Assembly: GCA_043825875.1 (NCBI GenBank)
Contig: JBDRRF010000028.1
Span: 1 to 62,489, forward strand
Direction: 5' to 3'
Length of the DNA: 62,489 nucleotides
DNA from: Pseudomonadota bacterium
GTDB lineage: Bacteria; Desulfobacterota; Desulfobacteria; Desulfobacterales; RPRI01
Shown: positions 11,653 through 33,056 of the stretch, piece after piece
How the letters are laid out: each line of letters opens with the position of its first letter
Numbering within the stretch: the stretch's first letter is position 1
The notes under the pieces: model-generated
Databases searched by the model: none
What the model saw: the letters and a program-made list of their open reading frames with translations, nothing else
Told to the model about the DNA's origin: nothing
Program-made: the position numbers and the translations under genes

Positions 11653-11660
11653 TTTATATC

Positions 11661-12464: not shown

Positions 12465-12520
12465 TTTACGAAATTGAAAAACTTATAAGATAATCGGTTA
12501 AAAGTTATAATAATCCGGCG

Positions 12521-13000
12521 TTATAAATTAAAATGAGCTTTAATTTTGAATACTTTTGTTGCAGGAAAATTAAATATCTCCTTAACACCGGTTTTATTGG
12601 ATATTTGTTTTAGATTATCCTCTATTTCTTCCATGGAAGGAGCAATAAACGTAAACCAGATATTAAAACTTCCATCTCTCAAGTAATTATGCGTTACACC
12701 AGGATATCGGTTTATAACTTCTGTAAAAGCTTCTATCTTACCTTCTGGCACCGAAGCTGTGCACAGTGTACTAACAAAACCCAGCTTTTCGGGTACAAAA
12801 TTACCTCCTATGCGGCGAATAAAACCATTTTCTTTAAGCTTTTTAAGCCTGTTAATAACATCATCTTCCGTCAGCCCAAGTTCATCAGCAATAACAAAAT
12901 AAGGACGGGAAGTAACCGGAAAATCAGACTGAACCCTGTTCAAGATGGTTTTATCCGTATCATCAAGTGCTATGGTTTTTTTTATTTTCTTTAAATACAT
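12521..13000 (-). CDS. ahbA: Siroheme decarboxylase alpha subunit (AsnC/Lrp-like, NirD/L family)
   Basis: QSDFPVTSRPY, IRRIGGNF, VSTLC, GVTHNYLR and FNIWFT motifs typical of AhbA in sulfate reducers. Confidence 0.8.
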   Translation of the reverse strand: MYLKKIKKTIALDDTDKTILNRVQSDFPVTSRPYFVIADELGLTEDDVINRLKKLKENGFIRRIGGNFVPEKLGFVSTLCTASVPEGKIEAFTEVINRYPGVTHNYLRDGSFNIWFTFIAPSMEEIEDNLKQISNKTGVKEIFNFPATKVFKIKAHFNL

Positions 13001-13027
13001 TATGATTTATCATTCTCCTATCCTATT

Positions 13028-13118
13028 GAATATCGAATATCGAACAAGAAATTCCCAATTATGAAGTTCTTTACCTTCCTTTTACATTCTACATTCGATA
13101 TTGGATATTCTATATTCA
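13028..13118. repeat. Inverted GAATATC/GATATTC heptamer element
   Basis: GAATATCGAATATCGAACAA ... TTCGATATTGGATATTCTATATTC. The left end is shared with the element at 768. Confidence 0.6.
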
Positions 13119-13138
13119 AACCCCTGACCCTTCCTGGT

Positions 13139-13537
13139 TTATACTATTCTGATATTAACTTTCCTTGTACGAGGACCGTCAAACTCGCAGAAAAAAATAC
13201 CCTGCCAAGTTCCAAGTTCAAGCTTTTTATTATTAACTGCAACAAGTTCGGAAGCCCCAACCAGAACAGACTTAACATGAGCCGGAGAATTCCCCTCCAT
13301 ATGACGATAGTCGGCTTCCCACGGAACTATCTTATTTAATATCATAAGGATATCATTTTTTACGCTAGGATCTGCGCTTTCATTTATAGTAACTGCCGCA
13401 GTTGTGTGTGGAACATAAATCATGCACAGACCATTTTCAATTTTCCTTTCCATGCATATGCTAAACACAATTTCCTGAACTTTTGATGTAATATCTACCA
13501 GTTCTGTTTTTTGACCGGTCTTAATAGCAATATCCAT
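13139..13537 (-). CDS. yjbQ: YjbQ/UPF0047 family protein
   Basis: PHTTAAVTINE, HMEGNSPAHVK and LGTWQGIFFCEFDGPR. Confidence 0.9.
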   Translation of the reverse strand: MDIAIKTGQKTELVDITSKVQEIVFSICMERKIENGLCMIYVPHTTAAVTINESADPSVKNDILMILNKIVPWEADYRHMEGNSPAHVKSVLVGASELVAVNNKKLELGTWQGIFFCEFDGPRTRKVNIRIV

Positions 13538-13551
13538 CTAATCTCCCAAAA

Positions 13552-13695
13552 TAAGACCTTTGAAGAATACTCAATTTTGGTCAAGTACAAGGAAGGCGAG
13601 AATTTCAACCACAGGAATACATTAAGTATTTCGAGGAGTGAAATTAGAGCCTGACGCAGTAATCGGCCAAAAGGGGGTGTTATGCAAAGGTCTTA
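13552..13695. repeat. ~144-bp imperfect palindrome (MITE/REP-like)
   Basis: Ends TAAGACCTTTG...CAAAGGTCTTA with imperfect pairing over ~35 bp. Internal CAAGG and GACGCAG. Confidence 0.7.
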
Positions 13696-13728
13696 AAACA
13701 AAAGGCCCTGCAATTGGCAGAGCCTTTT
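13695..13728 (-). terminator. Rho-independent terminator after dsrC
   Basis: Minus strand AGGCTCTGC-CAATT-GCAGGGCCT followed by TTTGTTTT. Confidence 0.8.
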
Positions 13729-15067: not shown

Positions 15068-16135
15068 TCACTTTTCCGAACAAGCGCAGGCGTTAGGATC
15101 ATAACTGTTCATCATATCACAGACCCTGCGTATATCAATGTTAACCGGACAGGCGCGTATGCACCGACCGCAACCGACACACTGAATTCCATTATCATAT
15201 TTATCAACATAATACTTCAGCTTATGCATGAATCTCTGGCGTACCCTGTGAAGTTTGGTACCTCTCGGATTGTGCCCTGTGCCATGAATTGTAAAAAGAG
15301 GAAACATACAACTATCCCAGTTTTTCATGCGCATCCCGGTACACCCGGAGTTTTCATCCTGAATATCGAAACACCAGCATGTCGGACAAAGAAACGTGCA
15401 TGTCCCACAGTTTATACAGGCAAATGAAACATCTTCCCAAAACGGCGCCTCATATAGCTCATTTGTGGTTTTGTTTTTAAGCTGGTCTGAAACAACTGAC
15501 GAATTTATCTTAGCCTCTGCTTCTTTTTTAAGAGAATCTATTTTTTCATTGGCACTGGCGTCAGCTTCAGTATTTAATCCGGCATTCTTTAACAGGTCTT
15601 CACCTTTAGGCGTAATAGCTTTTGCATAATAGCAATCATCCGCATCAGCAAGAAGGATATCAAGACCTTCTTCACAAAAAGGGCCTGAGCCTGCACTTGT
15701 GCAAAAACAGGTGCTGCATGGATTATTGCATGCCAACCCTATGAATGTCGTTGCTTCATATGATTTAACCCAGTATGGATCTTTATAATCAGGATTATCA
15801 AAATTTCTCTTCACAAGCAGAAAAGCCGCTGCATCACAGGGCCTGATTCCTAAAACGGCCTTTGGCGAATAATCTATAGCAGCATCTTTCATCACATGAT
15901 GATCGGCTTCTTTTTCATCAAGAGAATACTCGAACATAACCTCGGTCTGTGGATATACTATCGACTTTGGGGAAAGGCGCGTATTTTGAAAATTCAAATC
16001 CGGCAATTCTCCCTTTCCAAGCTCTTTGAAATCATGAAATTTCTCACCCATGACCGGACCAAACAACCGATAACTGTCCTGAATTTTCTTTATTCCATCA
16101 GTCCAGTCTTTTTTATCAATTTTAATAACTTTCAT
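15068..16135 (-). CDS. flxB: FlxB iron-sulfur protein (AsrA-like)
   Basis: GIRPCD, CINCGTCTFLCPTCWCFD, RQRFMHK and CVGCGRCIRACP. Confidence 0.88.
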   Translation of the reverse strand: MKVIKIDKKDWTDGIKKIQDSYRLFGPVMGEKFHDFKELGKGELPDLNFQNTRLSPKSIVYPQTEVMFEYSLDEKEADHHVMKDAAIDYSPKAVLGIRPCDAAAFLLVKRNFDNPDYKDPYWVKSYEATTFIGLACNNPCSTCFCTSAGSGPFCEEGLDILLADADDCYYAKAITPKGEDLLKNAGLNTEADASANEKIDSLKKEAEAKINSSVVSDQLKNKTTNELYEAPFWEDVSFACINCGTCTFLCPTCWCFDIQDENSGCTGMRMKNWDSCMFPLFTIHGTGHNPRGTKLHRVRQRFMHKLKYYVDKYDNGIQCVGCGRCIRACPVNIDIRRVCDMMNSYDPNACACSEK

Positions 16136-16190: not shown

Positions 16191-17138
16191 TTATTTTATA
16201 AATTCTTCCGGATCATCCGGCTTGAATGTATCAAGCGAAGGCCGCGCATCTTGGGAAATACCTGCTTCCCAACCAAACATCTCAAAACAATCCTTTTCAA
16301 GTTTTTTGGTAAATGCCCGAACATTAATTCCAACCGGACAAGCTCTCTCACACGAACCACAATCCGTACATCTACCGGCACAATGATAAGCCCTTAAAAA
16401 ATGAAATGTTCTAATATCGGTTTCATCCTGGCTTTTACCAACCCACTGGGGATTCGATTCATCAACAAAACATGTGGGGCAGTAGCACAAAGGGCAGGCA
16501 TTTCTGCATGCATAGCATCGAAGACATCCGGATAAGATATTTTCAAAATGCTCCCACTTTTGTGCGGGTTGCATAGCCTCAATTTCCCTTACATCAGCAT
16601 ATCTGTCCACATCTTTTTGCTCCTGGACAAGAGGCGCAGCAAGCTCATCATACATAACAGGATTTCTGTGGATGCAAATAGAACAGTTTTCCTGCATAAC
16701 TTCGGATTTACTTAATTCTTTTTCAAATCCTTCGCCTTTTACAACTATCGCATCCCCTTTATCGGTAACTTCTTTAATTTCGGAATCAAACATAGCCGAT
16801 ATTTTACGGCGATCAATCATACCCTTACAGGGAACGCCTATAATTACCAAATTTTCCCGTTTGATTTTATTTTCAATTATATGGGTTACGATATTTCTTG
16901 AATCACACCCCTTGGCAATTATGCCTATTTTTTCTTTTCTGTCGGTAAGATAATTGGCAAGGTTTATTCCGCAGTTGCTGTCCCAAAAGAGTTTAGATAC
17001 TTCATCTGAGCTTTTCACAAAACATGGCTCATTCATCATAGGCACTGATCCTTTCTTAAAGCCTATGATCATATCCACCTTACCTTCTTCCAACAGCTGT
17101 TTTGATATTTCTTTTATCTTATCAATATAACCTAACAT
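16191..17138 (-). CDS. flxC: FlxC iron-sulfur protein (FrhB/FdhB-like)
   Basis: KGCDSR, CLRCYACRNACPLCYC and RCTDCGSCERACP. Starts 1 nt after the read-through stop of flxD. Confidence 0.85.
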   Translation of the reverse strand: MLGYIDKIKEISKQLLEEGKVDMIIGFKKGSVPMMNEPCFVKSSDEVSKLFWDSNCGINLANYLTDRKEKIGIIAKGCDSRNIVTHIIENKIKRENLVIIGVPCKGMIDRRKISAMFDSEIKEVTDKGDAIVVKGEGFEKELSKSEVMQENCSICIHRNPVMYDELAAPLVQEQKDVDRYADVREIEAMQPAQKWEHFENILSGCLRCYACRNACPLCYCPTCFVDESNPQWVGKSQDETDIRTFHFLRAYHCAGRCTDCGSCERACPVGINVRAFTKKLEKDCFEMFGWEAGISQDARPSLDTFKPDDPEEFIK

Positions 17139-17139
17139 A

Positions 17140-17568
17140 TTAAGCTACCTTAGCTGTTTTCTTAAAATTATTATTAGGCCCAATGGCCTTTACCGTCTCC
17201 GTCACTTCCTTTACCACATCAACAAACTTTGTCGACTCGGCAGAGGAAACCCAGGAAAAATTCAACCTTCCTGGCTCAACACCCATATGTTCCATAAGAT
17301 TCTTAAAGAGACCGAATTTTCTCCGTGCGTAATAATTACCTTCCAGGTAATGGCATTCGCCGGGATGTCACCCGGACACCCAGACCCCATCAGCCCCCTG
17401 TCTTAAGGCTGAGAGGAAGAACTTTGGGCTCATACGCCCGGTACATGGTATCCTTATAACCCTGATATTGGGAGGATACTCCATCCGGCCTACCCCGGCC
17501 AGATCTGCAGCTCCATAACTGCACCAGTTACATAAAAAACTGATTATTTTGGGTTCAAACTCAGACAT
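17140..17568 (-). CDS. flxD: FlxD/MvhD [2Fe-2S] protein, selenoprotein (in-frame UGA at 17368-17370), 142 aa
   Basis: [19 protein letters not shown], then VSG-UGA-HPGECHY where MvhD has GCHxGxCHY. The frame continues to TAA at 17140-17142. GAGGAG RBS. Confidence 0.92.
17335..17351 (-). promoter_or_regulatory. Putative bacterial SECIS hairpin of flxD
   Basis: ATTACCT-GGA-AGGTAAT begins 16 nt after the UGA and has a G-containing apical loop. Confidence 0.7.
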
Positions 17569-17610: not shown

Positions 17611-20600
17611 TTAAACGGCTTGATTTAACGCAAATATCTGCGCAAATATCTGATCATTATCAAACCCTTTCAACCGGATAGCACCTGAACGGCACGATGC
17701 TACACATAATCCGCATCCTTTACAAAGAACCGGATTGATTTGTGCTTTACCCGGGAAGAATCTGGCTGTTTCCTCAATAAAAGAGGGAGCCGAATATGGG
17801 CAAATTGAAACACAAACCCCGCAACTGCTGCATGGCATTGGCATAACTTCTGCTATAGTACCGCTTGTCTGAATAATCTCACGTGCAAGCAGAGTCACTG
17901 CCCGTGATGCCGCAGCTTTTCCCTGAACAATGCATTCATCAATTGGTTTAGGATAATGAGCCATTCCGCATAAAAACACACCATCAGTTGCAAACTCGGA
18001 AGGCCCCAGTTTTGCGTGGCGCTCAACAAAGAAGCCGTCCGCATTCATCGGAACTTTAAAAAAATTGGCAAGTTTTTCATCACGGTTCGGAATAATTGCC
18101 GTTGCAAGTGCAATAAGCTCGGTTTCCAGTTCAAGCGGACGCCCAAGAATGTGATCCGTAATCTGAACAACCATTCGTCCTTTATCTATAAGCACTTTAG
18201 GCTTGTCATCAACGGAAAAACGTATAAAAATAATTCCTTTTTCACGCGCTTCTTTATAAAGATATTCACGCTCTCCGTAAGTCCTGACATCTCTATACAA
18301 CACATATATGTTCATGTCCGGATTTCTTCGTTTCAACTCCAGGGCATTATCAACTGAATGCGTACAGCAAACCCTGGAGCAATAAGGACGATCCGGTTCT
18401 CTTGATCCTACGCACTGAATAAAAACTGCTGATTTCATCCCGTTAATCATGGGGTCGTTACTGATCAATTTACTATCTAATTCCAGACTGGTTAATATGC
18501 GTGGATCTTTACCGTATTCATATTCAGTCGGTTCTAATGGATGAGCACCTGTTGCAATTACAGCAACACCGTGTTCAATTACTTCTTCTTTATTATTGGA
18601 CTTAATAGTACTTTTGAAACTCCCGACAAATCCATCAACCTGTGTCAAATCAGCATTCAGATGAACGCTGATCTTTTTGTTTTTCTCAATTTCCTTAATA
18701 AGCTCAGGAAGTTTTTCCTGAATCTTTTCGCCCTTGGCTGTCTGATAAAGGTTTCTGGCCTGGCCCCCAAGTTGACCGCTTTTTTCAATCAGGTGTGTTT
18801 CATAACCCTGCTGAGCCAGATTTTGTGCTGCAGCCATACCGGAAATACCGCCACCTATAACCATTGCGGTAGGTTTGATTTGAAGATCCGATTCTTTGAG
18901 CGGTTGTGTAAGAGCAACTTTTGCAACAGCTGAACGTACCAGATCTTTAGCCTTTTGCGTTGCTTTTTCAGGAGATGTTTTGTGAACCCAGGAATCATGG
19001 TTCCGTATATTAGCCATCTCAAACAGATACTTGTTTAAGCCTGCATTGATCAGAGTTTCCTGAAACAAGGGTTCATGAGTTTTCGGGGTACAGGCTGCAA
19101 CAACAATTCTATTGAGATTTTTTTGCTTAATTATACTTACCAGATTGTCCTGCGTATCCTGCGAGCATGAATACAGGTTATCGGTTGCAAATTCCACAAA
19201 AGGAAGAGTTGCCGCATATTCCGCAACAGACGGCACATTAACAACACCGGCAATATTTATTCCGCATCTGCATACAAATACTCCGATACGGGGCCTCTCA
19301 CCGGTTACGTTTATTTCAGGCACAATCTCTTTTATTTTGGTAAGAGTATTTCTTGCCGTACTCAGATCCGCTCCTGCCACTGCCGCAGCAGCACTTGCAT
19401 CAATAACCGACTGCGGAATATCTTTCGGACCCTGAAATGCTCCGCAAACATAAATACCTTTTTTTGATGTGCTTACCGGCTCAAAAGAAGTCGTATTGCA
19501 GAAATTGCCTTTCGTCAGATCAAGACCCAGCTTGTTTGCCAACTCCTTTGTTTCTTCTGAAATTTCAAGGCCTACAGATAATACTATCTGATCGAAAGTC
19601 TCTACAATTGTCTCTCCGTTTTCCGAAATGTATCGAATACTTAAATCATCTGTTCCGGGAACCGGATCAATAGTATGAACTCTGCTTCGGATAAAGCGGA
19701 CTCCGTGCTTATCTTTCGCGTTATTGTAAAAACGCTCAAACTCCTTGCCATGCGTACGCATATCCATATAAAAAATTGCGCAATCCAGATCACTTCCGGA
19801 ATGTTCTTTTGCAATCACAGCTTCCTTTATTGCATACATGCAACACACCGATGAGCAATAGGAATGATCGCATTTATTCATATCACGAGAACCCACACAC
19901 TGAAACCAAGCTATTTTTTTAGGTTCTTTGTGGTCTGAAAGCCTTACTAAATGGCCACCTGTAGGACCGGATGCGGAAAGTATCCGCTCCATTTCCATAG
20001 AAGTTATAACATTCGGATGTTTGGCATAGCCATAGGAATCGAATTTTGTGGGATCAAACGGTGTAAAACCGGGTGTCAGAATAATCGCTCCTACATCCAG
20101 TTCAACAACTTCATCCTCCATAGTGTGATCTATGGCATTTACACCGCAAAATTCCGTACACACCTGGCAGCCACCGGTTTTAAAATGCATACACACACTG
20201 CGGTCAATAGCAGGTGTATTTGGGACTGCCTGAGCATATGGAACATAAACAGGCTTTCGCCCTTTAAGTCCCATATCGTATTCTGAAGGAATAGGCTTAA
20301 AATTATTGACACTAACATTTTGCCGAATTTTCTCCAGAGTAATATGACCTGTAGGACAAACAGAAGCACAAGCTCCGCAGGATAAACAGGCTTCAGTCTG
20401 AATATGGAATGGAGTATCCACCTTCATATCCACACCACGGCCGGTCAGGCTTATAGCATTGTTTCCCATTTTGGCGCAAATTCGTGTACATAGACCGCAA
20501 AGTATACAAGTATCTTCTTCTTTTTTAAATCTTGTTTCAGATACACCGTATTGTTCACCCAATTTTTTCAATATAGGAACATCCGGGCAACGTGCCATAA

Positions 20601-20874
20601 GAAGTTCAACTATAAGCTTTCGTCCCTTATGTACGGCTTCAGAATCAGTGTTAACCTCCATCCCTTCCCATATAGGATAATTACAGGAAGTAACAAACCT
20701 GCTTCTGCGGCCATCAAAAACTTCTACTGTGCAAATCCGGCACATGCCTGCCGGTTCAAGGGCCTTGTGATGGCAAAGGGTTGGGATTTCCACTCCATAT
20801 TTCTGGGCAACCTGAAGAATATATTGTCCTTCTTCTCCCTGAACAGTTTTACCATTAAGTTTAAATGTTATCAT
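17611..20874 (-). CDS. hdrA: NuoG/HydA-N-like Fe-S domain fused to a tandem HdrA lacking its first N-terminal FAD-binding segment
   Basis: N-terminal [2Fe-2S] IPTLC...CRIC...SC and 2x[4Fe-4S]. Then HdrA core 1 (QAVP, MEMER, QCVGSR, CSSVCC, GPKDIP), HdrA N-domain (FVCRCG, AACTP, NIRNH), core 2 (IGGGISG, QCVGSR, CSRVCC) and a C-terminal ferredoxin. Confidence 0.9.
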   Translation of the reverse strand: MITFKLNGKTVQGEEGQYILQVAQKYGVEIPTLCHHKALEPAGMCRICTVEVFDGRRSRFVTSCNYPIWEGMEVNTDSEAVHKGRKLIVELLMARCPDVPILKKLGEQYGVSETRFKKEEDTCILCGLCTRICAKMGNNAISLTGRGVDMKVDTPFHIQTEACLSCGACASVCPTGHITLEKIRQNVSVNNFKPIPSEYDMGLKGRKPVYVPYAQAVPNTPAIDRSVCMHFKTGGCQVCTEFCGVNAIDHTMEDEVVELDVGAIILTPGFTPFDPTKFDSYGYAKHPNVITSMEMERILSASGPTGGHLVRLSDHKEPKKIAWFQCVGSRDMNKCDHSYCSSVCCMYAIKEAVIAKEHSGSDLDCAIFYMDMRTHGKEFERFYNNAKDKHGVRFIRSRVHTIDPVPGTDDLSIRYISENGETIVETFDQIVLSVGLEISEETKELANKLGLDLTKGNFCNTTSFEPVSTSKKGIYVCGAFQGPKDIPQSVIDASAAAAVAGADLSTARNTLTKIKEIVPEINVTGERPRIGVFVCRCGINIAGVVNVPSVAEYAATLPFVEFATDNLYSCSQDTQDNLVSIIKQKNLNRIVVAACTPKTHEPLFQETLINAGLNKYLFEMANIRNHDSWVHKTSPEKATQKAKDLVRSAVAKVALTQPLKESDLQIKPTAMVIGGGISGMAAAQNLAQQGYETHLIEKSGQLGGQARNLYQTAKGEKIQEKLPELIKEIEKNKKISVHLNADLTQVDGFVGSFKSTIKSNNKEEVIEHGVAVIATGAHPLEPTEYEYGKDPRILTSLELDSKLISNDPMINGMKSAVFIQCVGSREPDRPYCSRVCCTHSVDNALELKRRNPDMNIYVLYRDVRTYGEREYLYKEAREKGIIFIRFSVDDKPKVLIDKGRMVVQITDHILGRPLELETELIALATAIIPNRDEKLANFFKVPMNADGFFVERHAKLGPSEFATDGVFLCGMAHYPKPIDECIVQGKAAASRAVTLLAREIIQTSGTIAEVMPMPCSSCGVCVSICPYSAPSFIEETARFFPGKAQINPVLCKGCGLCVASCRSGAIRLKGFDNDQIFAQIFALNQAV

Positions 20875-20893
20875 AAATCAATACCCCTTATAA

Positions 20894-22795
20894 TTAACGA
20901 ATCACAATTGCATCAAATTTGCAGGCATCATAGCAAATTCCGCATTTAATGCACTTGGCCTGGTCAAGTGTATGAGGCTGCTTTTTCTCACCGGTAATTG
21001 CATCCTGTGGACATTTTTTAGCACAGGAACGGCAACCGGTACAGGCTTCTGCATCAATTTCATAATGGAAAAGCGGCTTACATACACCGGCAGGGCATTT
21101 TTTATGCTTTATATGTGCTTCGTATTCATCACGAAAATATAAAATAGTTGTAAGAACCGGGTTGGGTGCTGAAGTTCCAAGCCCGCAAAGAGAAAATTTC
21201 TGTATCATATCACCCAGCTCTTCAAGCAGCTCGAGATCGCCGTCCTTGCCGTTTCCCTGGCAGATATCTGTCAGGATATCCAGCATCTGTTTGATGCCTT
21301 CCCGGCACGGATTGCATTGGCCACAGGATTCTTCCTTAAGAAAATCAAGAAAATATCGAGCTACATCCACCATGCATGTATCCTGATCCATAACGATCAT
21401 TCCACCTGATCCCATGATGGATCCAACTTCAGCCAGTTTCTGATAGTCCACGGGCAAATCAAGAAGATTTTCAGGAATACAACCACCGGACGGCCCGCCT
21501 GTTTGAATGGCCTTGAATATTTTCTTTTTAGGTACTCCTCCGCCAATGCTGAAAACGATATCTTTAAGATTGATTCCCATAGGGACTTCAACAAGTCCGG
21601 TATTTTTGATTTTGCCAACCAAACTAAAAACCTTGGTTCCCTTGCTGTGCTCAGTTCCCATACCTGCAAACCAAGGTGCTCCCTTCAATACTATCGGAGG
21701 CACATTAGCATAAGTCTCAACATTGTTCAGATTGGAGGGACTTTCTCTGAACCCTTTTTCAACCGTATGCACATATTTTGCGCGTGGACGTCCCACCAGT
21801 CCTTCAAGTGAAGACATCAAAGCGGTAGATTCTCCACAAACGAAAGCCCCCGCTCCTCTGGATATTTTTAAATTAAAACTAAAACCTGTTCCGGCTATGT
21901 TTTCACCAAGAAGTCCATAGGCTTCCGCCTGTTTAATAGCAGTAATCAGGCGGTTTACGGCAAGTGGATATTCATTTCGAACATAAAAGAATCCGCTCCT
22001 TGAACCTATGGCCAGAGCAGCGATCAACATACCTTCCAAAACGCTATGGGGATCACCTTCCAGAATACTTCTGTCCATATAAGCACCCGGATCTCCTTCG
22101 TCTGCGTTACAAATGATATGTCTGTCTCCATGATGTTTGGCACAGGTTTCCCATTTGATTCCGGTTGGAAATCCTCCTCCGCCTCTTCCTCTAAGCCCCG
22201 ATTCTTTTACGGTTTTGATAATATCGGCAGGCTTTGACTGAGTCAGGGCATTAATAAAGGCATAATAGCCTCTTTTTGCGATGTATTCTTCGATTGAATC
22301 AGGATCAATATAACCGCAGTTACGGATAGCGATCTTGGTTTGCTGGCTGTAAAAAGGAATATCTTCCAGGAAGGGAATGTCTTCCAAAGGCTCAATGCCA
22401 GCCTGCGGATTTTGCATATCATCTTCCAGAAGGCTCCGTGGATCTCTAACCTGACCCAGTATCCATTTACTATTATATTCGCCTTTCATATAGCCGGAGA
22501 TAGCTTCAATGATCTTATCTTCCGTCATATGATGGTACATAATTCTTGGTTTATCTTTACTTATAATTTCAACCAACGGCTCCATTTCACAAAAACCGAT
22601 ACATCCGGTTTGAGAAATAGTTACACCGGGATTTCCGGAAAATTCCTGAGATGCTTTGTCATAGGAAGTCTGAGCACCTGCTGCGATTCCGCAGGATGCC
22701 ATTCCTACATTCACCTTTATACCTTCAGGAGAATAAAGCCCGTTTAAGTATTTCTGGCGTATTTTATCTAAGTCTTTTATAGACATGATTTTCAT
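20894..22795 (-). CDS. NuoF/HydB-like FMN/NADH-binding subunit (long form)
   Basis: N-terminal thioredoxin-like Fe-S domain, LRGRGGGGFP, NADEGDPGAYMDR, GGPSGG, ESCGQCNPCREG, HxxxxxCPAGVC and two C-terminal [4Fe-4S] motifs. Confidence 0.93.
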   Translation of the reverse strand: MKIMSIKDLDKIRQKYLNGLYSPEGIKVNVGMASCGIAAGAQTSYDKASQEFSGNPGVTISQTGCIGFCEMEPLVEIISKDKPRIMYHHMTEDKIIEAISGYMKGEYNSKWILGQVRDPRSLLEDDMQNPQAGIEPLEDIPFLEDIPFYSQQTKIAIRNCGYIDPDSIEEYIAKRGYYAFINALTQSKPADIIKTVKESGLRGRGGGGFPTGIKWETCAKHHGDRHIICNADEGDPGAYMDRSILEGDPHSVLEGMLIAALAIGSRSGFFYVRNEYPLAVNRLITAIKQAEAYGLLGENIAGTGFSFNLKISRGAGAFVCGESTALMSSLEGLVGRPRAKYVHTVEKGFRESPSNLNNVETYANVPPIVLKGAPWFAGMGTEHSKGTKVFSLVGKIKNTGLVEVPMGINLKDIVFSIGGGVPKKKIFKAIQTGGPSGGCIPENLLDLPVDYQKLAEVGSIMGSGGMIVMDQDTCMVDVARYFLDFLKEESCGQCNPCREGIKQMLDILTDICQGNGKDGDLELLEELGDMIQKFSLCGLGTSAPNPVLTTILYFRDEYEAHIKHKKCPAGVCKPLFHYEIDAEACTGCRSCAKKCPQDAITGEKKQPHTLDQAKCIKCGICYDACKFDAIVIR

Positions 22796-22817
22796 GGTTT
22801 TTGCCTCTTAGTAACAT

Positions 22818-23312
22818 TTATTCATAGCGGCTTAGTATCGGTTTGACTTCGTCCGGTGTAATACGGCCATGCATGTCTTCATTAATTTTAATGACCGGCC
22901 CCAGACTGCAACATCCGATACATCGCACGGACTCTAATGTAAAGCGTTTATCCTCAGTAGTTTGACCATCAGTAATATTTAAAGTGTCGGTAAGGCCCTC
23001 TCTGATTCGTTCACCACCCCTGACATGACAGGCTGTCCCCAGACATATAGAAATAATATTACGACCTCTTGGTTTGAGGCTGAACGTGCTGTAAAAAGTT
23101 GCAACTCCAAATATATGACTTAATGGGATTCCAATTTTAACTGCAAGATAGGATATAGCTGCTTTAGGAAGATAATTATAAACTTTTTGAATGCCCTGAA
23201 GTATCATAATCAGGTTTTCTTTATCAGTATTATAATCCTCTCCAATAATTCTATCTAGATCTCTGTAATCAATATCACATGATTCTTCATTTATAGACGG
23301 ATTCATTTCCAT
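22818..23312 (-). CDS. NuoE/HydC-like [2Fe-2S] subunit
   Basis: VATFYS, CLGTACH and CIGCCSLGP. Confidence 0.93.
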   Translation of the reverse strand: MEMNPSINEESCDIDYRDLDRIIGEDYNTDKENLIMILQGIQKVYNYLPKAAISYLAVKIGIPLSHIFGVATFYSTFSLKPRGRNIISICLGTACHVRGGERIREGLTDTLNITDGQTTEDKRFTLESVRCIGCCSLGPVIKINEDMHGRITPDEVKPILSRYE

Positions 23313-23336
23313 TTCTCCAAAAAACTATCGTTACTA

Positions 23337-23723
23337 TTACGCTGTGATGACTTGCTGTGTAACGGGACAGTTTTCAACACATGCACCACAGCCAGTACAT
23401 AAATCCCTACTAATGCTGCGTGCTCGTTTTTTGACTTTTACTTTAAAATTGCCCGGTTTTCCATCAACAGATTCCAGATCTGCATATGTAATTAATTCGA
23501 TATTAAGGTGCCGGCCGACCTCGACCAGTACAGGTGAGATAATTCACATAGCGCAGTCATTGGTCGGAAATGTCTTATCCAGTTGAGACATAACTCCACC
23601 AATAGACGGGGATTTTTCAAGAAGATATACATAATAACCGGAATTGGCCAAATCCAGAGCTGACTGCATCCCTGCAATACCGCCACCAACAACCAGTACG
23701 GAACCAAGTACGCTTTGAGACAT
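23337..23723 (-). CDS. HdrA N-terminal fragment, 128-aa selenoprotein (UGA = codon 60, 23544-23546)
   Basis: Not in the ORF track. AGGAGA RBS, ATG 23723. [26 protein letters not shown]...[17 protein letters not shown]...[26 protein letters not shown] 23337-23339. Confidence 0.9.
23511..23528 (-). promoter_or_regulatory. Putative SECIS hairpin of the HdrA N-terminal selenoprotein
   Basis: CTGGTCG-AGGT-CGGCCGG (with G-U pairs) starts 15 nt after the UGA. The GGU loop resembles the E. coli fdhF SECIS. Confidence 0.72.
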
Positions 23724-24144: not shown

Positions 24145-25176
24145 TTATGTATATTTGAAGCTAAAATTCTTCTTTGTAAATATTTTATCACAGATTTCTA
24201 CAATATCCGCTTCATATAGAATGCCTTTGTTTTTTCTAATCTCTTCCAAAGCTATATCTATACCAAGCCCGGGGCGATAAGGCCGGTGCGAGGCCATAGC
24301 CTCAACAACATCGGCTACTACCAGGATACGCGACTCAGGCATAATTTCATCTGCTTTCAGACCATTAGGATACCCGGAGCCATCCATTCTTTCATGGTGT
24401 TGTAACACCATCGTTTTAATCGGCCATTCGAAATCGATTCCCTTTAGAATATCATAGCCCACCTGGGGATGGGTTTTGATTATAGCAAATTCAATATCAT
24501 TGAGCTTACCTGGTTTAGTAAGAATTTCAGATGGCACGGAAATTTTACCAAGATCGTGAATCATTCCGCCCATAAGAATTCCTTTTACCTGCTCCTCTGT
24601 GAAATCCATCTCATGAGCAATAGCACATGCAAGTTCGGCTACTCTGCGTTGATGGCCTGCCGTATAAGGGTCTTTTGATTCTACTGTATGTGCAATAACC
24701 TGAATTACTCCTTCAAGAGTATCCTGAAGTTTTGCAGTACGAGCAGCCACAAGTTCCTCCAGTTTTTCCCTGTAGATTTGTTTTTCCATTTCCAGCCTTT
24801 GCCTTTTAAGAGCACTGGAAACATTTATTATCACTTCGCTTGGCTTGAAAGGTTTAACAATATAACCATAGGCGCCTAATTCCAGGGCCTTTTCAGCAAC
24901 TTCCGGATCATCCACTCCACTCACCACAATAACAGCAGTCGCAGGATACTCGGAGATAACATGTGTGATAAGATCCATTCCCGACTCTCCGGGCAAACGG
25001 ATATCACATAGAATAAGATCAAAACTCTCCTCCTTCAATATTTTGCGGGCTTCTTCCCCACTGCCTGCATGTGTACAGTCCCGTTTAATCAATTTTATGA
25101 TTCGCTCCATAGTGCGACGAACGGATGCCTCATCATCCACTATAAGAATATTTTTCAGGCCTGCTTTCTCTTCCAT
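24145..25176 (-). CDS. Response regulator with HD-GYP cyclic-dinucleotide phosphodiesterase domain
   Basis: REC (LIVDDE, LCD), then DPYTAGHQRRV, HDLGK and HHERMDGSGYP. Start chosen at MEEK; the ORF extends to 25215. Confidence 0.92.
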   Translation of the reverse strand: MEEKAGLKNILIVDDEASVRRTMERIIKLIKRDCTHAGSGEEARKILKEESFDLILCDIRLPGESGMDLITHVISEYPATAVIVVSGVDDPEVAEKALELGAYGYIVKPFKPSEVIINVSSALKRQRLEMEKQIYREKLEELVAARTAKLQDTLEGVIQVIAHTVESKDPYTAGHQRRVAELACAIAHEMDFTEEQVKGILMGGMIHDLGKISVPSEILTKPGKLNDIEFAIIKTHPQVGYDILKGIDFEWPIKTMVLQHHERMDGSGYPNGLKADEIMPESRILVVADVVEAMASHRPYRPGLGIDIALEEIRKNKGILYEADIVEICDKIFTKKNFSFKYT

Positions 25177-25319
25177 ATCTGAGTCCCTTCGTAGTTTCTG
25201 CTCCATAAATTGCACATAAACCGATTATATTATATTTCAGAAATATTTGAAAGTAAGTTCTTCTCACACTCCGGATTCTTTCAAATGGCTCTTTAATCCC
25301 TTCCTCATAAATTACCTCA

Positions 25320-25640
25320 GAAATGAAAATCCAAATAACAAGCATCAAATAACAAAATAATTCCAAACAGCAAATATTGAAATTCCAAATTCCAAAAATC
25401 AATGACTGTAACTATTTGGTTTTTTACAATATTATTATTTTTGGCAATTTTTTAACAAAAAGCCGTACAGCTTTAGCGAATTGAAAAATTCTTTCCTCAA
25501 GATCAAATACTGATTTGTGATTTGTGATTTGTATTTTATTATTTGTGATTTTTTTGTTTTTTGTGATTTGTTTTTTGTGTTTTCTTCCTTCAACATTCAT
25601 TATTCATTATTCAATTTTTATTATTCATTATTCAATTTAC
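25320..25640. repeat. Inverted heptamer arrays (AAATNNN / NNNATTT, plus TTCATTA units) around a four-helix-bundle remnant
   Basis: AAATCCAAATAAC...AAATTCCAAATTCC to the left, GATTTGTGATTTGTGATTTGT to the right. Confidence 0.75.
25412..25510 (-). pseudogene. Internally deleted four-helix-bundle (TIGR02436-like) gene
   Basis: Translates VFDLEERIFQFAKAVRLFVKKLPKII-IL*KTK*, i.e. a family-like N-terminus joined to a C-terminus-like end. Confidence 0.75.
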
Positions 25641-25646
25641 TTTCCT

Positions 25647-28346
25647 TTAGAGCCTGTCCAGTACCTCCCTCACTTTTCTTGCCAGACTATCTGGTGTAAA
25701 AGGCTTCTGGAGAAAGGGAATCTCTGCATCAAGTACTCCACTATGAACAATGCCGCTATCCGTATAACCCGACATATAAAGTACCTTCAAATCCCTGCAC
25801 ACATCCTGAGCCTTCGCGGCCAGGACTTCTCCACCCATCTCAGGCATTATAATATCGGTCAGCAGCAGATGAATCATTTTTTCTTGCTCCCTTAAGATAC
25901 GCAGGGCTTTTTGACCATCCGGAACGCTTATGACTTGATAGCCAAAACTTTTCAGAGCCTTAAAAGCTACTTTTCTGACCATCTCATCATCTTCAACCAA
26001 CAGGACAGTCTCGGAACCATGAAGTACTTCTTCCCTTGCATCCCCCTCTTTAGGCGATTGAGGAGCTTTTTCACAACTGGGAATATAAATCTTGAAGGTA
26101 GTTCCTTTCCCCGGCTCACTGTAAACCCATATGTAGCCGTTGCTCTGCTTTACAATACCATATGCCGTAGACAGCCCGAGCCCCGTTCCCTTGCTCTTAT
26201 CCTTGGTAGTAAAAAAGGGTTCGAAAACATGAGGCTGCACCTCCCTTGCAATTCCGATCCCTGAGTCGCTCACGGCCAGCATAACGTAAGAACCTGGTAT
26301 CATCGCGTGCGCATCGGTATATTCTTCATCCAGCTCAATGTTTTTTGTCTCGATGGTGAGATTTCCACCCTTCGGCATGGCATCTCTGGCATTGACGACA
26401 AGGTTCATGATCACCTGTTCAATCTGCCCAATATCCGCCTCAACCTGTCCCAGATCAGGGGCCAGATTTGTTATTAGCTTTATATCTTCACCAATTATAC
26501 GGCTAAGCATACTTCCCATTTCATTTACGATCTCGTTGAGATTGATCACTTCAGGTTGAAGAATCTGCTTCCGGCTGAAGGCCAGGAGTTGATTGGTTAA
26601 ACCTGACGCCCTTTGTCCTGCATCTTTGATCTCTCCAACCATTTCATGCTCCGGATGATCTTTTCCTATGCCAATAAGAGCCAATTCGGCATTTCCGATA
26701 ATAGTAGTCAAAAGATTATTAAAATCATGGGCAATGCCAGCAGAAAGCCTGCCGATAGCCTCCAGCTTCTGGGACTGGCGAAGCTGCTCCTGTAAGTTTT
26801 TACTCTCGGTAATGTCTGTATGAACTGAGATAAGAACTTTCCCATATTTTGAATGATCGAACACAGAAGCATTTGCATAACACCAAAATTTCGACCCATC
26901 TTTCCTGATATTTTTCACTTCGCCCTGCCAGCAACCCTTTTCATGTAAAATTGCCATAATATTTTTGGCAGTCTCTTCAGGCTTTATTTCTGCTGAAGCA
27001 TTTACAATTGAAACATGCTTTCCGAGCATTTTTCCTTGTTCATAGCCGAACATTTTTTCAAATATCGAATTCGTATATACAATAATACCATCTTCCATCC
27101 TGACAAGATAGACTGCTTCAGCCAAATTCGTCATGATTTCACTTTGAAACCGCAGTTCCTCCTCCGCCTGCTTGCGCTCGGTTATATCGAAGATATAATG
27201 AACGAACAGATCCTCTGAGAGATCTTCCCATATACCTTCGTACCATATTCCTCTGTACTCGACTTCGACCTTTTGCGATTTCCCGGTCGTCCACAGTTTG
27301 GGTGCAAGACAGAAAGGGCAGTAATCGTCTCGCAAGGCGCATGTCTTGAAGCATGTCTGGCCCGGAACGGCCCCGATCTCACGGGCGTGTCTATTGGAAG
27401 CTACAATTTCACGGGTGCTTTTCTTGAGGATCAATGCAATACAACCTGGAATATTATCAAGCAAAGCCGTTCGCATTTGGAATTCCCTCTCCATATTTTC
27501 TTCCGCCCTCTTGCGCTCGGTGATGTCGTTGAATGTAACAATAAGAATATCTGAGAGGAATGTAGCATAGAGTTCGCAAATGCGTTCAGAACCATCAACA
27601 CAGGTAACCCGGTATTCACCTGTGTTGACAGTCTGGCGCGATTCACGGGCTATTTCTAAAAAAGGTTTCCATCGTTCAATCACTTCACGGCGGTAATCGG
27701 GGTCAGGGTAAGCAATCTGATACCACTCGGATGCTGTAGGCGCGGTATGCCCAAAAAGGATAAGGGCGGAGATACTCCAGAAATGAATTTTATCATCATG
27801 CAAGTCAACAACTGCAATTGGAAATGGGGTAGCATTGAGAATGGTACGCAATTTTCCTTCACTCTCCCGTAGTGCTTCTTCCACATTCTTGCGCTCGGTT
27901 ATTTCTTTTAAAAGTTGCGCATTTTTGCTTTTCAGATTCAATTGCAACCGGTTAATGGATAAATGGGTTTTTACTCTTGCAAGCACTTCTGCTGCATAAA
28001 ATGGTTTATTAATATAATCAACAGCGCCGGCTTGAAACCCTTTGTTTTTTGAACGCTGATCCTCCAAGGCACTGATAAAAATAACCGGAATAGAACTCGT
28101 TTTTTCATCCGCTTTGAGCTTCCGACACACTTCCAAACCATCCATGCCTGGCATCTTGATATCCAGCAAAATGAGCGTCGGCGGTTTGTCTTTCGCGCTG
28201 CGTAGCGCTGTCTCACCATCACTGTTTGTGCGAACTTTGTAGTCGGCATTACTTAGAATATCGGATAACAATTTCAAATTGAATTCCGCGTTATCGACAA
28301 CAAGGATTTCATCACGGGCTGTTAAATCGGGTTCAGTGATATTCAT
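25647..28346 (-). CDS. Hybrid histidine kinase (REC, PAS domains, HisKA, HATPase, REC)
   Basis: LLDIKMPGMDG, AGIAHDFNN, GTGLGLSTAYGI and C-terminal REC. Confidence 0.95.
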   Translation of the reverse strand: MNITEPDLTARDEILVVDNAEFNLKLLSDILSNADYKVRTNSDGETALRSAKDKPPTLILLDIKMPGMDGLEVCRKLKADEKTSSIPVIFISALEDQRSKNKGFQAGAVDYINKPFYAAEVLARVKTHLSINRLQLNLKSKNAQLLKEITERKNVEEALRESEGKLRTILNATPFPIAVVDLHDDKIHFWSISALILFGHTAPTASEWYQIAYPDPDYRREVIERWKPFLEIARESRQTVNTGEYRVTCVDGSERICELYATFLSDILIVTFNDITERKRAEENMEREFQMRTALLDNIPGCIALILKKSTREIVASNRHAREIGAVPGQTCFKTCALRDDYCPFCLAPKLWTTGKSQKVEVEYRGIWYEGIWEDLSEDLFVHYIFDITERKQAEEELRFQSEIMTNLAEAVYLVRMEDGIIVYTNSIFEKMFGYEQGKMLGKHVSIVNASAEIKPEETAKNIMAILHEKGCWQGEVKNIRKDGSKFWCYANASVFDHSKYGKVLISVHTDITESKNLQEQLRQSQKLEAIGRLSAGIAHDFNNLLTTIIGNAELALIGIGKDHPEHEMVGEIKDAGQRASGLTNQLLAFSRKQILQPEVINLNEIVNEMGSMLSRIIGEDIKLITNLAPDLGQVEADIGQIEQVIMNLVVNARDAMPKGGNLTIETKNIELDEEYTDAHAMIPGSYVMLAVSDSGIGIAREVQPHVFEPFFTTKDKSKGTGLGLSTAYGIVKQSNGYIWVYSEPGKGTTFKIYIPSCEKAPQSPKEGDAREEVLHGSETVLLVEDDEMVRKVAFKALKSFGYQVISVPDGQKALRILREQEKMIHLLLTDIIMPEMGGEVLAAKAQDVCRDLKVLYMSGYTDSGIVHSGVLDAEIPFLQKPFTPDSLARKVREVLDRL

Positions 28347-28369
28347 CTGATCTCCTTTGACTTATTATT

Positions 28370-28433
28370 TCACCCATAAGCACTTCATGCAATACTATGC
28401 TCAATGATTGTGTTTCAAACAGCTTGGGTAATA
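28370..28433 (-). pseudogene. 3' remnant of a hybrid kinase receiver domain
   Basis: ILPKLFETQSLSIVLHEVL matches the C-termini of the 30338 and 33057 kinases at both protein and DNA level. Confidence 0.7.
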
Positions 28434-28562
28434 TACACCATGGAGATAATCCCAAATAATAAATTCCAAATTCCAAGCACCAAATTACAATGAAATTCCA
28501 AATTCCAAAAGTGAAAATCCACACACAGAGCGGGTAGCCTCAAAAAGCCCCCCCTACTATTT

Positions 28563-28676
28563 CTCCTCTCCCCTCGCGGGAGAGGGCCAGGGTGAGGGGG
28601 AATAAAAAAATAGTCGTTCATTTACTTCCACTTTTTTCACCCCCACCCTAACCCTCCCCCATCAATGGGGAGGGAA
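28563..28676. repeat. Inverted pair of CCCCTCACCC..CCCTCTCCC-N-GGGAGAGG-type REP-like elements
   Basis: CCTCTCCCCTCGCGGGAGAGGGCCAGGGTGAGGGGG and CCCCCACCTAACCCTCCCCCATCAATGGGGAGGG. Confidence 0.7.
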
Positions 28677-28771
28677 TTTAAAATCAACATTAATTATATT
28701 ATTTCCATTATCACCGGATCGGTGGTATCTATCCGGGCCCTCCACCTGATGTGGAGGGTTTAAATCGATAC

Positions 28772-28822
28772 TAACTGAAAAGTTCTCTCCTCAAGATCAT
28801 ATACAGGTTTATTATCTGTCAG
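28772..28822 (-). pseudogene. Short 5' remnant of a four-helix-bundle gene
   Basis: Translates TDNKPVYDLEERTFQL. DNA matches the 30230-30270 copy. Confidence 0.65.
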
Positions 28823-28864
28823 TTGTGATTTGTTATTTATTTGTTATTTGTGTTTTGTCTTTTG

Positions 28865-30010
28865 TTATTTGCCATTATATATATCAATATCCTGATAATA
28901 CTTTCTCTCACATTCCGGGCAAATACCATGAGTAAATTCAGCTCCGGAATGATCTCTGATGTAGGCTTCGATCTGATTCCAATAACCTTTGTCATCTCTT
29001 ATTTTTTTACAGTGAGAACAGATAGGAAGCATTCCGCTTAACAGCTTTACCTTTTGCAGGTTATCCTTAAGGTCTGTAATCAATTTTTCTTTTTCTTTTT
29101 CCGCCCTCTTGCGCTCAGTGACATCCTGACCGGTCACCAGCAAACCGATAATCTTTCCGTTTTTATCTTTTAAGGTTCGGTCATACCACTCAATATCCCT
29201 TTCGCTTCCATCCTTTAACAGTATTGAGCTAACAATACCCTTGGTCCGGATATCTCCAACAGCTTTTTTAAAAAGCACTCTGATGTTGTCACGCTCTCTT
29301 GCTGGAATAAATGTAGAAAACCATTCTTTTCCTTTTATCTCATCAAGCCGATAACCTGATAATTCCTCCATAAAAGTATTAATGCTGATGATATAACCGC
29401 CAAGGTCCAGAACTACGATTATTGTCTGGGCAGTGTTAAGGATGTTTTTCGAAAATTCATGTTCCTTATAAAGAGCCTCATCTGCCCTCTTGTGTTCGAC
29501 AATTTCCCATCCAACATCGGCCAGAAAGGATACCTTTTCAACATCATCTTCGGTATAATCGGCAGGCTTATTGCCTACCCCAAGAATGGCCATGATCCGA
29601 TCGTCTCTCATTACGGGTACAACCAGCTCCCGGATAATTGCCGCATGTCCCGGAGGCAAACCTTTCCGGTGCGGCAATGAAGCATAATCGTTATGAATCA
29701 CCGGCCGCCGTTGATGTACGCAGTCTACCCATACTCCGGCCCGGTCGATTTCGTAATGTGTTCCTTTCCCTTCCGCCTTACAAAACTCATTTACCGTTCG
29801 CGTTGACCATGCCTGGAGTGAAAGGGTCTTTTGGTCACTCTCTACAAAGTGAAAAAAACCGATGGGACTTTCGGTTAATTTACCAACTTCGTCCATTGTT
29901 TTCTGAATCAGTTCTTCAAGAGAATGAGATATCGCGAATTCGAATAAACGAAGACGGATACGAATAAAATCCCTTGTCTTTGAACTGGGCTTTGATTTTG
30001 CTTGTTCCAT
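28865..30010 (-). CDS. GAF-PAS protein with C-terminal CxxC...CxxC domain, no kinase
   Basis: GAF (WVDCVHQRRPVIHNDY), PAS, and LPICSHCKKIRDDKGYW...THGICPEC. Confidence 0.88.
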   Translation of the reverse strand: MEQAKSKPSSKTRDFIRIRLRLFEFAISHSLEELIQKTMDEVGKLTESPIGFFHFVESDQKTLSLQAWSTRTVNEFCKAEGKGTHYEIDRAGVWVDCVHQRRPVIHNDYASLPHRKGLPPGHAAIIRELVVPVMRDDRIMAILGVGNKPADYTEDDVEKVSFLADVGWEIVEHKRADEALYKEHEFSKNILNTAQTIIVVLDLGGYIISINTFMEELSGYRLDEIKGKEWFSTFIPARERDNIRVLFKKAVGDIRTKGIVSSILLKDGSERDIEWYDRTLKDKNGKIIGLLVTGQDVTERKRAEKEKEKLITDLKDNLQKVKLLSGMLPICSHCKKIRDDKGYWNQIEAYIRDHSGAEFTHGICPECERKYYQDIDIYNGK

Positions 30011-30079
30011 TATGCATTACCTCAGATATAATTTTGCTCGATTTTGCAAATCGTTTTCATTTAATCTTGGCAGTAATAA

Positions 30080-30350
30080 AATTATAAATCCCAAGCACCA
30101 AATAACAATTAAATTCCAAACTACAAATGACAAAGAAATACCAAAAAAACAATGACTGTAACTATTTGATTTTTCAGTTTTATTGTATTTGGCAACGTTT
30201 TAACAAAAAGCCGGACAGCTTTCGCAAATTGGAAAGTTCTCTCCTCAAGATCATATATAGGTTTGTTCTTTGTCATTTTGTTATTTGTGATTTTTTTGCG
30301 ATTTGTATTTTGTTATTTGTTTGTTTTTTGAAATTTGTTATTTGTTATTT
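30080..30350. repeat. Inverted heptamer arrays around a four-helix-bundle remnant
   Basis: AAATAAC/AAATTCC/AAATGAC units to the left, ATTTGTT/ATTTGTG units to the right. Confidence 0.75.
30162..30276 (-). pseudogene. Internally deleted four-helix-bundle gene
   Basis: ATG 30276: MTKNKPIYDLEERTFQFAKAVRLFVKTLPNTI, then GAAAAATCAAATAG. ~110-bp direct repeat with 25400-25510. Confidence 0.78.
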
Positions 30351-32800: not shown

Positions 32801-32803
32801 AGA

Positions 32804-32986: not shown

Positions 32987-33056
32987 ACCTTCTTCCTTTT
33001 GCTTTAAAGATTTCTATCAATCTTAATCCAATACCCTTGGTCATCAATCAATATTT

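Follow-up and report, generated by a model that had tools for sequence, protein, structure and literature searches.

A run of nine genes on the minus strand of contig JBDRRF010000028.1 (62,489 nt, analysed over its full length and referred to here as the window) encodes an HdrA, a protein of a flavin-based electron-bifurcating family, that is cut into two polypeptides, with a second predicted bifurcating module of the Bfu (HydABC-type) family set into the cut. In the best explanation, the nine genes form a single operon in a sulfate reducer of the Desulfobacterales, and the predicted gene products would form a soluble Flx-HdrA-Bfu complex. The genome also encodes DsrA. The genes are tightly packed in the order head, bfuC, bfuB, BfuA::HdrA fusion, mvhD, flxC, flxB, flxA and dsrC, with successive intergenic gaps of 24, 22, 19, 42, 1, 55, 18 and 125 nt. 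By domain content and order, flxA–D adjoin hdrA, as in FlxABCD-HdrABC systems. The names FlxA, FlxB, FlxC and FlxD are presumed, with FlxC assigned by gene order. In the following list, FAD and FMN are flavin adenine dinucleotide and flavin mononucleotide, NAD(P) is nicotinamide adenine dinucleotide (phosphate), Sec is selenocysteine and aa is amino acids.

23337 to 23723, minus strand: HdrA head, a 128-aa selenoprotein with a GGGIAG FAD-binding motif, C57-x-x-U60 and the first ferredoxin motif (C109/C112/C115/C119)
23508 to 23531, minus strand: hairpin resembling a Sec insertion sequence (SECIS), 15–38 nt after the head UGA, fold −10.9 kcal/mol (computed without a shuffle control)
22818 to 23312, minus strand: BfuC, a NuoE-like [2Fe-2S] thioredoxin-fold subunit, 164 aa (PF01257)
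20894 to 22795, minus strand: BfuB, a long-form HydB-like FMN, NAD(H) subunit, 633 aa (by best PDB matches and motifs)
17611 to 20874, minus strand: BfuA::tandem-HdrA fusion gene, 1087 aa
20335 to 20874, minus strand: BfuA part of the fusion, residues 1–180, with A1 [2Fe-2S] and A2 and A4 [4Fe-4S] ligands (Cys positions 34/45/48/64, 123–133 and 163–173)
17611 to 20334, minus strand: linker and HdrA body, residues 181–1087, comprising the second part of the inserted ferredoxin domain, the remainder of FAD core 1, the second HdrA unit and the C-terminal ferredoxin
17140 to 17568, minus strand: MvhD/FlxD adaptor, 142 aa, Sec67 (one TGA must be read as Sec)
16191 to 17138, minus strand: FlxC-like 2[4Fe-4S] protein, 315 aa (Fer4 families)
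15068 to 16135, minus strand: FlxB-like (AsrA/sulfhydrogenase beta-like) FeS protein, 355 aa
14204 to 15049, minus strand: FlxA-like FAD, NAD(P)H, [2Fe-2S] subunit, 281 aa
13761 to 14078, minus strand: DsrC, 105 aa (sole PF04358 match in the genome)

The initial annotation, made from the sequence alone, had described a HydCBA-like module inside the ferredoxin domain of a split HdrA, and that arrangement is indeed seen in the sequence. The nuoE- and nuoF-like genes that it placed between the two HdrA pieces are those of 164 and 633 aa, and the NuoG-N-like domain that it placed ahead of the second piece corresponds to the first ~180 aa of the fusion, which are NuoG/HydA-N-like. It had further counted two pyridine-nucleotide sites and had noted the absence of a catalytic subunit of hydrogenase or formate dehydrogenase; the two sites are located in BfuB and FlxA, and the operon indeed has no such catalytic gene. 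It had passed over the Sec residues of the head and MvhD, the link to dsrC, the lack of hdrBC, and the fact that in other genomes this slot is empty or holds a GltD domain.

The HdrA Head and the Cut Point

Against the NCBIfam HdrA2 profile, the head covers positions 138–257, stopping after the first ferredoxin motif of HdrA as originally proposed, and the best-matching stretch of the body begins at position 257 (body residue 195). The 1087-aa gene thus resumes HdrA at the matching point. It does not do so directly after CLSCGACASVCP, as had been claimed, since the HdrA sequence restarts ~22 residues past this motif, following TGHI and a variable linker. Judged by these profile matches, the cut is clean and falls inside the inserted ferredoxin domain, and the head and body between them hold every HdrA element.

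The head attains 128 aa only when codon 60, an in-frame TGA (DCAM-U-IISP), is translated as Sec. Under translation table 11 it breaks into two short frames, and the UGA codon makes the gene easy to overlook in annotation. A tRNA-Sec gene was found in the genome, and one-piece HdrA paralogues in the same genome share the CAMU codon. Comparison with relatives (the locus counts here and below, unless another sample is named, rest on the best 80 of the 316 stretches confirmed among 364 in a species-level scan, with 72 of these 80 loci parsed) revealed a TGA at the Sec codon in 51 of 51 parsed heads, an invariant CxxU motif, and termination ~6–17 residues after the first ferredoxin motif in all 51. 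The core stem-loop letters of the SECIS-like hairpin were identical in each of the 13 relatives displayed, that is, every fourth of the 51. Codon differences among the heads were overwhelmingly silent (2643 synonymous vs 398 non-synonymous), and the head is evidently under strong purifying selection. Sec is likewise the rule in MvhD, where it occurs in 43 of 44 parsed relatives and is replaced by Cys in one.

The HdrA Body and the Two-Chain FAD Core

The body supplies the remaining residues of FAD core 1, namely E296, K350 and C326/340/344/345. K350, which aligns with K409 of the HdrA in 5odc, is present in each of the 61 full-length relatives. The second HdrA unit has neither this Lys nor the CxxC, and a Lys occurs at its corresponding site in only 4 of the 61. 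This pairing of a Lys-type first site with a Lys-poor second unit corresponds to the B-FAD and NB-FAD of BamE, and together the head and body are classed here, from their sequences, as a BamE-type tandem HdrA. A complete FAD core with Lys at N5 and an adjacent [4Fe-4S] site is found only when head and body are taken jointly.

It had been proposed that the first FAD site must be assembled from two polypeptides, and structure prediction agrees. When the two halves of the head were modelled with body residues 110–700, the complex scored 0.85, as compared to 0.25 for the best of three controls. Runs agreed in at least 96% of contacts, and the partner had a predicted local distance difference test (pLDDT) value of at least 83. 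The mark applied was one reached in calibration by 51 of 78 solved pairs and 2 of 108 mismatched pairs. In the model, head strand 9–12 pairs with body residues 263–265, the interface includes residues 296 and 350, and head and body reassemble FAD core 1. These predictions support a first FAD site that needs both chains, with GxGxxG and CxxU contributed by the head and E296 and K350 by the body.

The genome holds many further HdrA-family genes (G000 C8, C51, C79, C83, C100 and C109). These paralogues include three one-piece HdrL proteins (1476, 1476 and 1496 aa) and two uninterrupted tandem HdrAs (995 and 1017 aa).

The Bfu Cassette

BfuB consists of an N-terminal thioredoxin domain with three Cys, the B1 and B2/Zn ligands, and a C-terminal 2[4Fe-4S] domain. 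The FMN/NADH core, B1 and the C-terminal 2[4Fe-4S] domain are those that mark the Bfu family (PF01512, PF10589, two Fer4 matches and C491/494/497/537), and the B2 (FeS/Zn) ligands are present as C474, H561, C567 and C572. In the B5 region there are three Cys, as in the Zn site of Csac NfnB, whereas 12 of 54 relatives have four. The best PDB matches of BfuB are all B subunits of bifurcating Bfu enzymes. The accompanying subunits of the family, a BfuC and a BfuA with A1 and A2, are encoded in the same cluster. The BfuA part, for which the best PDB match is WorA (9mqx_A), is without the A3 motif and without a catalytic domain. Since only the A1, A2 and A4 ligands occur and there is no A3, the module is assigned to type 2. 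By their motifs, the cassette genes for C, B and A make up a complete type-2 Bfu module lying in the HdrA cut.

The nucleotide pocket of BfuB departs from that of Csac NfnB, with Ser323 and His343 in place of the NADH-adenosine binders E274 and F294, and its GESTAL motif is present in 55 of 55 aligned BfuBs. These Glu to Ser and Phe to His changes were considered as evidence of NADP specificity. They were rejected as such because WorB of Wor-Bfu shares the altered pocket (GESSAL, KYIH), binds NAD(H) and reduces NAD (PMC12318220). A homolog search with BfuB residues 195–365 returned only close relatives with uninformative names.

Two versions of BfuC/BfuB alternate within the otherwise conserved operon, even between close relatives (loci L043, L045, L046, L048, L049, L051, L055, L056, L092, L094, L101 and L112). 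The BfuB versions, of 633 aa with three N-terminal Cys and of 617 aa with four, are 62–66% identical, and their BfuCs ~45%. Elsewhere in the genome (G000 C44:798-2423), a 541-aa BfuB-like gene lies behind two old-yellow-enzyme-like genes; it has the GESTAL pocket and lacks the C-terminal ferredoxin domain.

Conservation and Distribution

The gene order, which the initial annotation had suggested looking for in other genomes, recurs widely enough to exclude misassembly. In all 51 loci for which the upstream DNA extends over 3350 nt or more, head, nuoE, nuoF and body follow one another, and mvhD, flxC, flxB, flxA and dsrC follow in 44 of 52 loci with enough downstream DNA. At the genome level, the full-length BfuA::HdrA junction occurs in 9/16 same-genus and 8/24 other-family genomes. 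Across the order, the junction is present in 28 of 121 sampled genomes, including this one and a partial copy with a stop in genome G053. Junction matches in the phylum are limited to 9 of 301 genomes, one being a stand-alone BfuA. The closest named match in the species-level scan was Desulfobacterium sp. N47, with 94% identity over the junction.

A search with a distant member of the family yielded 1116 clusters among 1923 candidates. The 120 that were listed all cover the junction and include some named from Terriglobia, Blastocatellia and Bacteroidota. In three complete distant loci (L164–L166) and a fourth seen in part (L167), the HdrA head is fused in frame to BfuC (~300 aa), an arrangement that connects the head with Bfu. 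Two of these loci (L164 and L165) have CxxC, a canonical GEETAL NADH pocket and hdrC/hdrB-like genes upstream; L165 also has metV/metF-like genes downstream. More generally, several split and intact relatives carry hdrC/hdrB-like genes upstream, and most loci ending in dsrC are without hdrBC. One locus (L173) has a shortened body. In three others (L070, L100 and L102), the genes that come after the split cassette, in place of flx-dsrC, are mvhD, an FeS gene and one resembling formate dehydrogenase, which is interrupted by a stop that is likely Sec.

The Exchangeable Slot and the Origin of the Split

A close FlxA is found in 91 of the 121 genomes of the order, at 100 places. Forty of these places were picked as not adjoining a fusion match and as having likely room upstream. 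They comprise 26 uninterrupted HdrAs (1008–1090 aa), nine HdrLs with a GltD insert (~1480–1520 aa), and five loci with no visible hdrA, three of these at contig ends. The nine HdrL inserts bear a GxGxxA...YRR motif, which we take to be of the NADPH type. Their entry point, in the ferredoxin domain that is also the site of the split, is ~30 residues further downstream. The Bfu cassette is therefore positioned in the HdrL slot, that is, the inserted ferredoxin domain.

Recombination between ferredoxin motifs had been put forward as the origin of the fusion, and this candidate was rejected. Such a crossover would give the head a BfuA tail and the body an HdrA tail, and the flanking residues run opposite to this prediction: heads end in CP-V (51/51), as in most HdrLs, while bodies keep CP-TG (72/72) into the linker, as in stand-alone BfuA. 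A single origin of the split forms was also rejected on a tree of the HdrA C-terminal core (74 rows, with every third near split body used), where split, HdrL and uninterrupted states are intermixed. An approximately unbiased (AU) test gave p = 0.024, a weak result given that 40 rows were chosen after the tree had been seen and a simpler model was applied. On an N-terminal tree of 115 columns, built by a quick method from a short alignment with every fourth head, the heads form one clade that groups with HdrL N-termini (96% in the Shimodaira–Hasegawa-like approximate likelihood ratio test, SH-aLRT). These patterns suggest a 5′ cassette that has a single origin within the order and is exchanged between cores.

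Comparison with Known Systems

The closest parallel is the class II benzoyl-CoA reductase (BCRII) of Geobacter metallireducens, with BamE, BamF and BamGHI (bioRxiv 10.64898/2026.04.10.717634; Bam-Bfu in PMC9304861). Like the HdrA of the operon, BamE is a tandem HdrA, in which the first FAD site is of the Lys type and the second is non-bifurcating. Both systems also have a CxxC/U near the N-terminus, a Sec-containing MvhD, a type-2 Bfu, and two bifurcation families in one cluster. In the Bam system, however, BamE is one chain, BamI is separate, and BamGHI docks via a long BamF on the input side. The operon, with BamE compared by description, differs in its split HdrA, the fusion of BfuA at the inserted ferredoxin, its 142-aa MvhD, and the presence of FlxABC and DsrC. 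The BamB/BamC catalytic module and BamD are absent from the operon (no BamB query was run on the rest of the genome).

HdrL, an HdrA/glutamate-synthase-like fusion (PMC2702500, PMC5947623), resembles the operon in that an NAD(P)H module interrupts the ferredoxin domain of HdrA and mvhD comes next. According to the same sources, D. autotrophicum has its HdrL1 linked to dsr genes, as the operon is to dsrC. HdrL is a single chain of ~1480 aa with a GltD-like FAD domain, whereas the operon has a cut chain and a three-subunit FMN Bfu insert. In the FlxABCD-HdrABC of Desulfovibrio vulgaris (via PMC10553843, PMC5947623), flxA–D adjoin hdrA and DsrC is the likely high-potential acceptor, as in the operon. 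In contrast, the operon lacks hdrBC, its HdrA is tandem and split, and a Bfu module is added.

Wor-Bfu (WorABCSL) of Acetomicrobium mobile (PDB 9MQX, PMC12318220) provides the closest solved BfuA, the same altered BfuB pocket and the same A1/A2/A4 entry path. Its third-substrate module is a tungsten aldehyde oxidoreductase held by a C-terminal helix, in place of which the operon has a fused HdrA. Finally, Desulfotignum phosphitoxidans, a member of the Desulfobacteraceae, co-transcribes nuoE/F/G with hdrA and mvhD (PMC4046663), like the operon. The orders given there are different (nuoGEF-mvhD-hdrA and hdrA-mvhD-nuoEFG-fdhD-etfAB), and the available text mentions no split or fusion. Among the Bfu classes in the available part of PMC9304861, which include Bam-Bfu, none is HdrA-fused or Flx-linked.

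A literature search found no paper describing an HdrA split or a BfuA::HdrA fusion, although earlier Hdr/Flx surveys and their supplements may show the gene order. By gene content, the operon is a real, conserved and as yet uncharacterised variant of known modules (tandem HdrA, Bfu and Flx). It belongs, on the same grounds, with neither BCRII, HdrL nor canonical Flx-HdrABC, and appears to be a cross of them.

Proposed Mechanism and Alternatives

Two features of the layout bear on how the predicted complex is wired. Flx would be the input because the flx genes follow a short MvhD, and Bfu would be the low-potential exit because the inserted domain is where BfuA is fused. In the reading that we favour, with chances a little short of even, NADH would be oxidised via Flx and the electrons bifurcated by HdrA. 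One branch would serve a DsrC-linked acceptor and the other Bfu, from which NADH and ferredoxin would result. FlxA would oxidise NADH and pass electrons through FlxB, FlxC and MvhD to the core-1 FAD, where they would be bifurcated. High-potential electrons would reach the DsrC-linked acceptor via an HdrBC/HdrD-type partner encoded elsewhere. Low-potential electrons would pass by way of the two-chain ferredoxin domain to BfuA (A4–A2–A1), and BfuBC would split them again between NAD+ and ferredoxin. The whole reaction may run in reverse.

Precedents exist for the separate steps. In BCRII, electrons enter BamE via the C-terminal ferredoxin and MvhD, the high-potential exit is BamD, and the inserted ferredoxin domain of BamE is the low-potential exit (bioRxiv 10.64898/2026.04.10.717634). 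In Wor-Bfu, A4 is the entry point for electrons from outside, which continue to NAD and ferredoxin (PMC12318220).

The energetics of the favoured wiring can be estimated from potentials of −280 mV for NADH, −380 mV for NADPH, −500 mV for ferredoxin and −140 mV for heterodisulfide (PMC9304861). If DsrC is assumed to equal heterodisulfide, the mean acceptor potential is −320 mV with ferredoxin, −265 mV with Bfu and −260 mV with NADP. By arithmetic on these assumed values, either insert would make NADH-driven bifurcation slightly downhill. With Bfu, the low-potential sink would rise to about −390 mV from the ferredoxin level of about −500 mV. This is near the NADP couple (−380 mV) of the HdrL GltD, and a sink at this level would account for the Bfu and GltD inserts replacing each other.

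A broader proposal, held more tentatively, is that the inserted ferredoxin of tandem HdrA constitutes an exchangeable low-potential socket that may be empty, filled with GltD, or filled with a whole bifurcating machine. In the third state, HdrA and then Bfu would act in series, the reverse of the BCRII wiring, via a two-chain FAD core and ferredoxin domain, in a dsrC-linked operon of about one quarter of Desulfobacterales genomes.

Several observations weigh against the series wiring. The position of the fusion alone is no proof of an electron path, and serial bifurcation is, by the available text of the BCRII preprint, unshown in vitro even for that enzyme (bioRxiv 10.64898/2026.04.10.717634). 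No hdrB, hdrC or hdrD is found in the operon, which leaves the high-potential exit without an encoded partner, and the 34 CCG-domain matches in the genome are all on other contigs, with none on that of the operon. The full flx-dsrC tail is missing in 8 of 52 loci, three of which have formate-dehydrogenase-like genes instead. In two loci (L168 and L169), the stretch retrieved holds BfuB and a body but neither a head nor BfuC, and a third (L170) has a lone body. As for the two-chain model, the head was modelled as two pieces without Sec in a job that differs from the calibration set, and its passing score may come from likeness to solved HdrA.

An unlikely alternative takes Bfu as the input, in the manner of BCRII: NADH and reduced ferredoxin would be confurcated at BfuBC and passed into HdrA, and from there to DsrC and to FlxA for NAD(P)+ reduction. 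In spite of where BfuA is fused, Bfu would then possibly touch the side of the C-terminal ferredoxin and MvhD, and the variable 22-residue linker may allow BfuA to dock elsewhere. The operon's Bfu has the type-2 build of BamGHI (A1, A2 and A4 only), which is reduced additively by NADH and ferredoxin and feeds BamE via BamF (bioRxiv 10.64898/2026.04.10.717634). In the same preprint, however, it is an extra winged-helix part of BamF that binds BamI, and MvhD here is short, at 142 aa. The input side also seems occupied, as flxC begins 1 nt after mvhD, and the insertion lies in the same domain as that of HdrL.

An energy-coupled transhydrogenase is improbable. In such an enzyme, BfuB would prefer NADP(H) and the cassette would be a functional copy of the HdrL GltD insert, with NADH and DsrC coupled to NADP+ reduction or the reverse. 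The substitutions at Ser323 and His343 and the uniform GESTAL motif fit this scheme, as do the HdrL inserts if their motif is, as presumed, of the NADPH type. The same pocket is nonetheless found in the NAD-using WorB (PMC12318220), and the distant split loci L164 and L165 have the canonical GEETAL form.

Slightly less probable again is that only Bfu bifurcates, with HdrA serving as a non-bifurcating relay or as a thioredoxin-reductase-like unit that reduces DsrC directly via FAD and CxxU. This would explain the absence of hdrBC from the operon and from most dsrC-ending loci, and it suits the invariant CxxU and the position of dsrC as the last gene. The bifurcation-type Lys and Glu are retained, however, and several split and intact relatives do have hdrC/hdrB-like genes upstream. 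In addition, the equivalent CxxC of BamE is on the low-potential path to cluster E3 and is no protein-substrate site (bioRxiv 10.64898/2026.04.10.717634).

Misassembly, or decay to a pseudogene by a stop and an insertion, might have been suspected from the in-frame TGA of the head, the 118 contigs of the assembly (the window itself is free of N letters), the stop in the G053 fusion and a few broken loci, but it is already refuted by conservation: the same layout occurs in dozens of independent assemblies, the TGA and hairpin are conserved, the head is under strong purifying selection, and one-piece HdrA paralogues in the genome have the same CAMU codon.

Significance

According to the BCRII preprint (bioRxiv 10.64898/2026.04.10.717634), no complex with two distinct bifurcation modules had previously been reported. 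The operon is a second, widespread candidate for such a combination. Its modules are joined at a different port from those of BCRII and are tied to DsrC, the central carrier of sulfate reduction, rather than to aromatic degradation. If the series wiring is true, two energy-coupling machines would be wired one behind the other. The three natural versions of the locus (empty, GltD and Bfu) offer a ready comparison for the function of HdrL and of Flx-HdrA lacking hdrBC, and they bear as well on the destination of the low-potential electrons of HdrA in sulfate reducers.

Other Features of the Window

The probable end of the operon is marked by a hairpin that was read by eye and is not in the terminator scan list:

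13700 to 13728, minus strand: hairpin with a T tail, 3′ of dsrC

A promoter and terminator scan of the window gave results at chance level. Three metatranscriptomes compared with the operon contained only short pieces from other organisms and are no evidence either way on expression. No relatives were found among viral contigs.

A dispersed repeat of 110–150 bp (window 13545–13700) lies between dsrC and a UPF0047 gene and is possibly a miniature mobile element. There are 288 candidate copies in the genome, many at contig ends, and the 40 that were scored showed 81–88% identity. The repeat has no Rfam match; the Rfam scan gave a single match, below threshold. Sequences like the repeat are abundant among groundwater metatranscriptome contigs of other organisms.

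Beyond the repeat (window 11026–13537) are the UPF0047 gene, an AsnC/NirDL-type gene, a carbon-nitrogen hydrolase gene and a CxxCxxCC gene, the first three of which recur behind dsrC in many relatives. Flanking the operon (window 24145–34748 and 7982–10945) are a series of PAS/histidine-kinase/response-regulator genes and one for an HD-GYP regulator, and sensor genes lie upstream of the operon in several relatives too.

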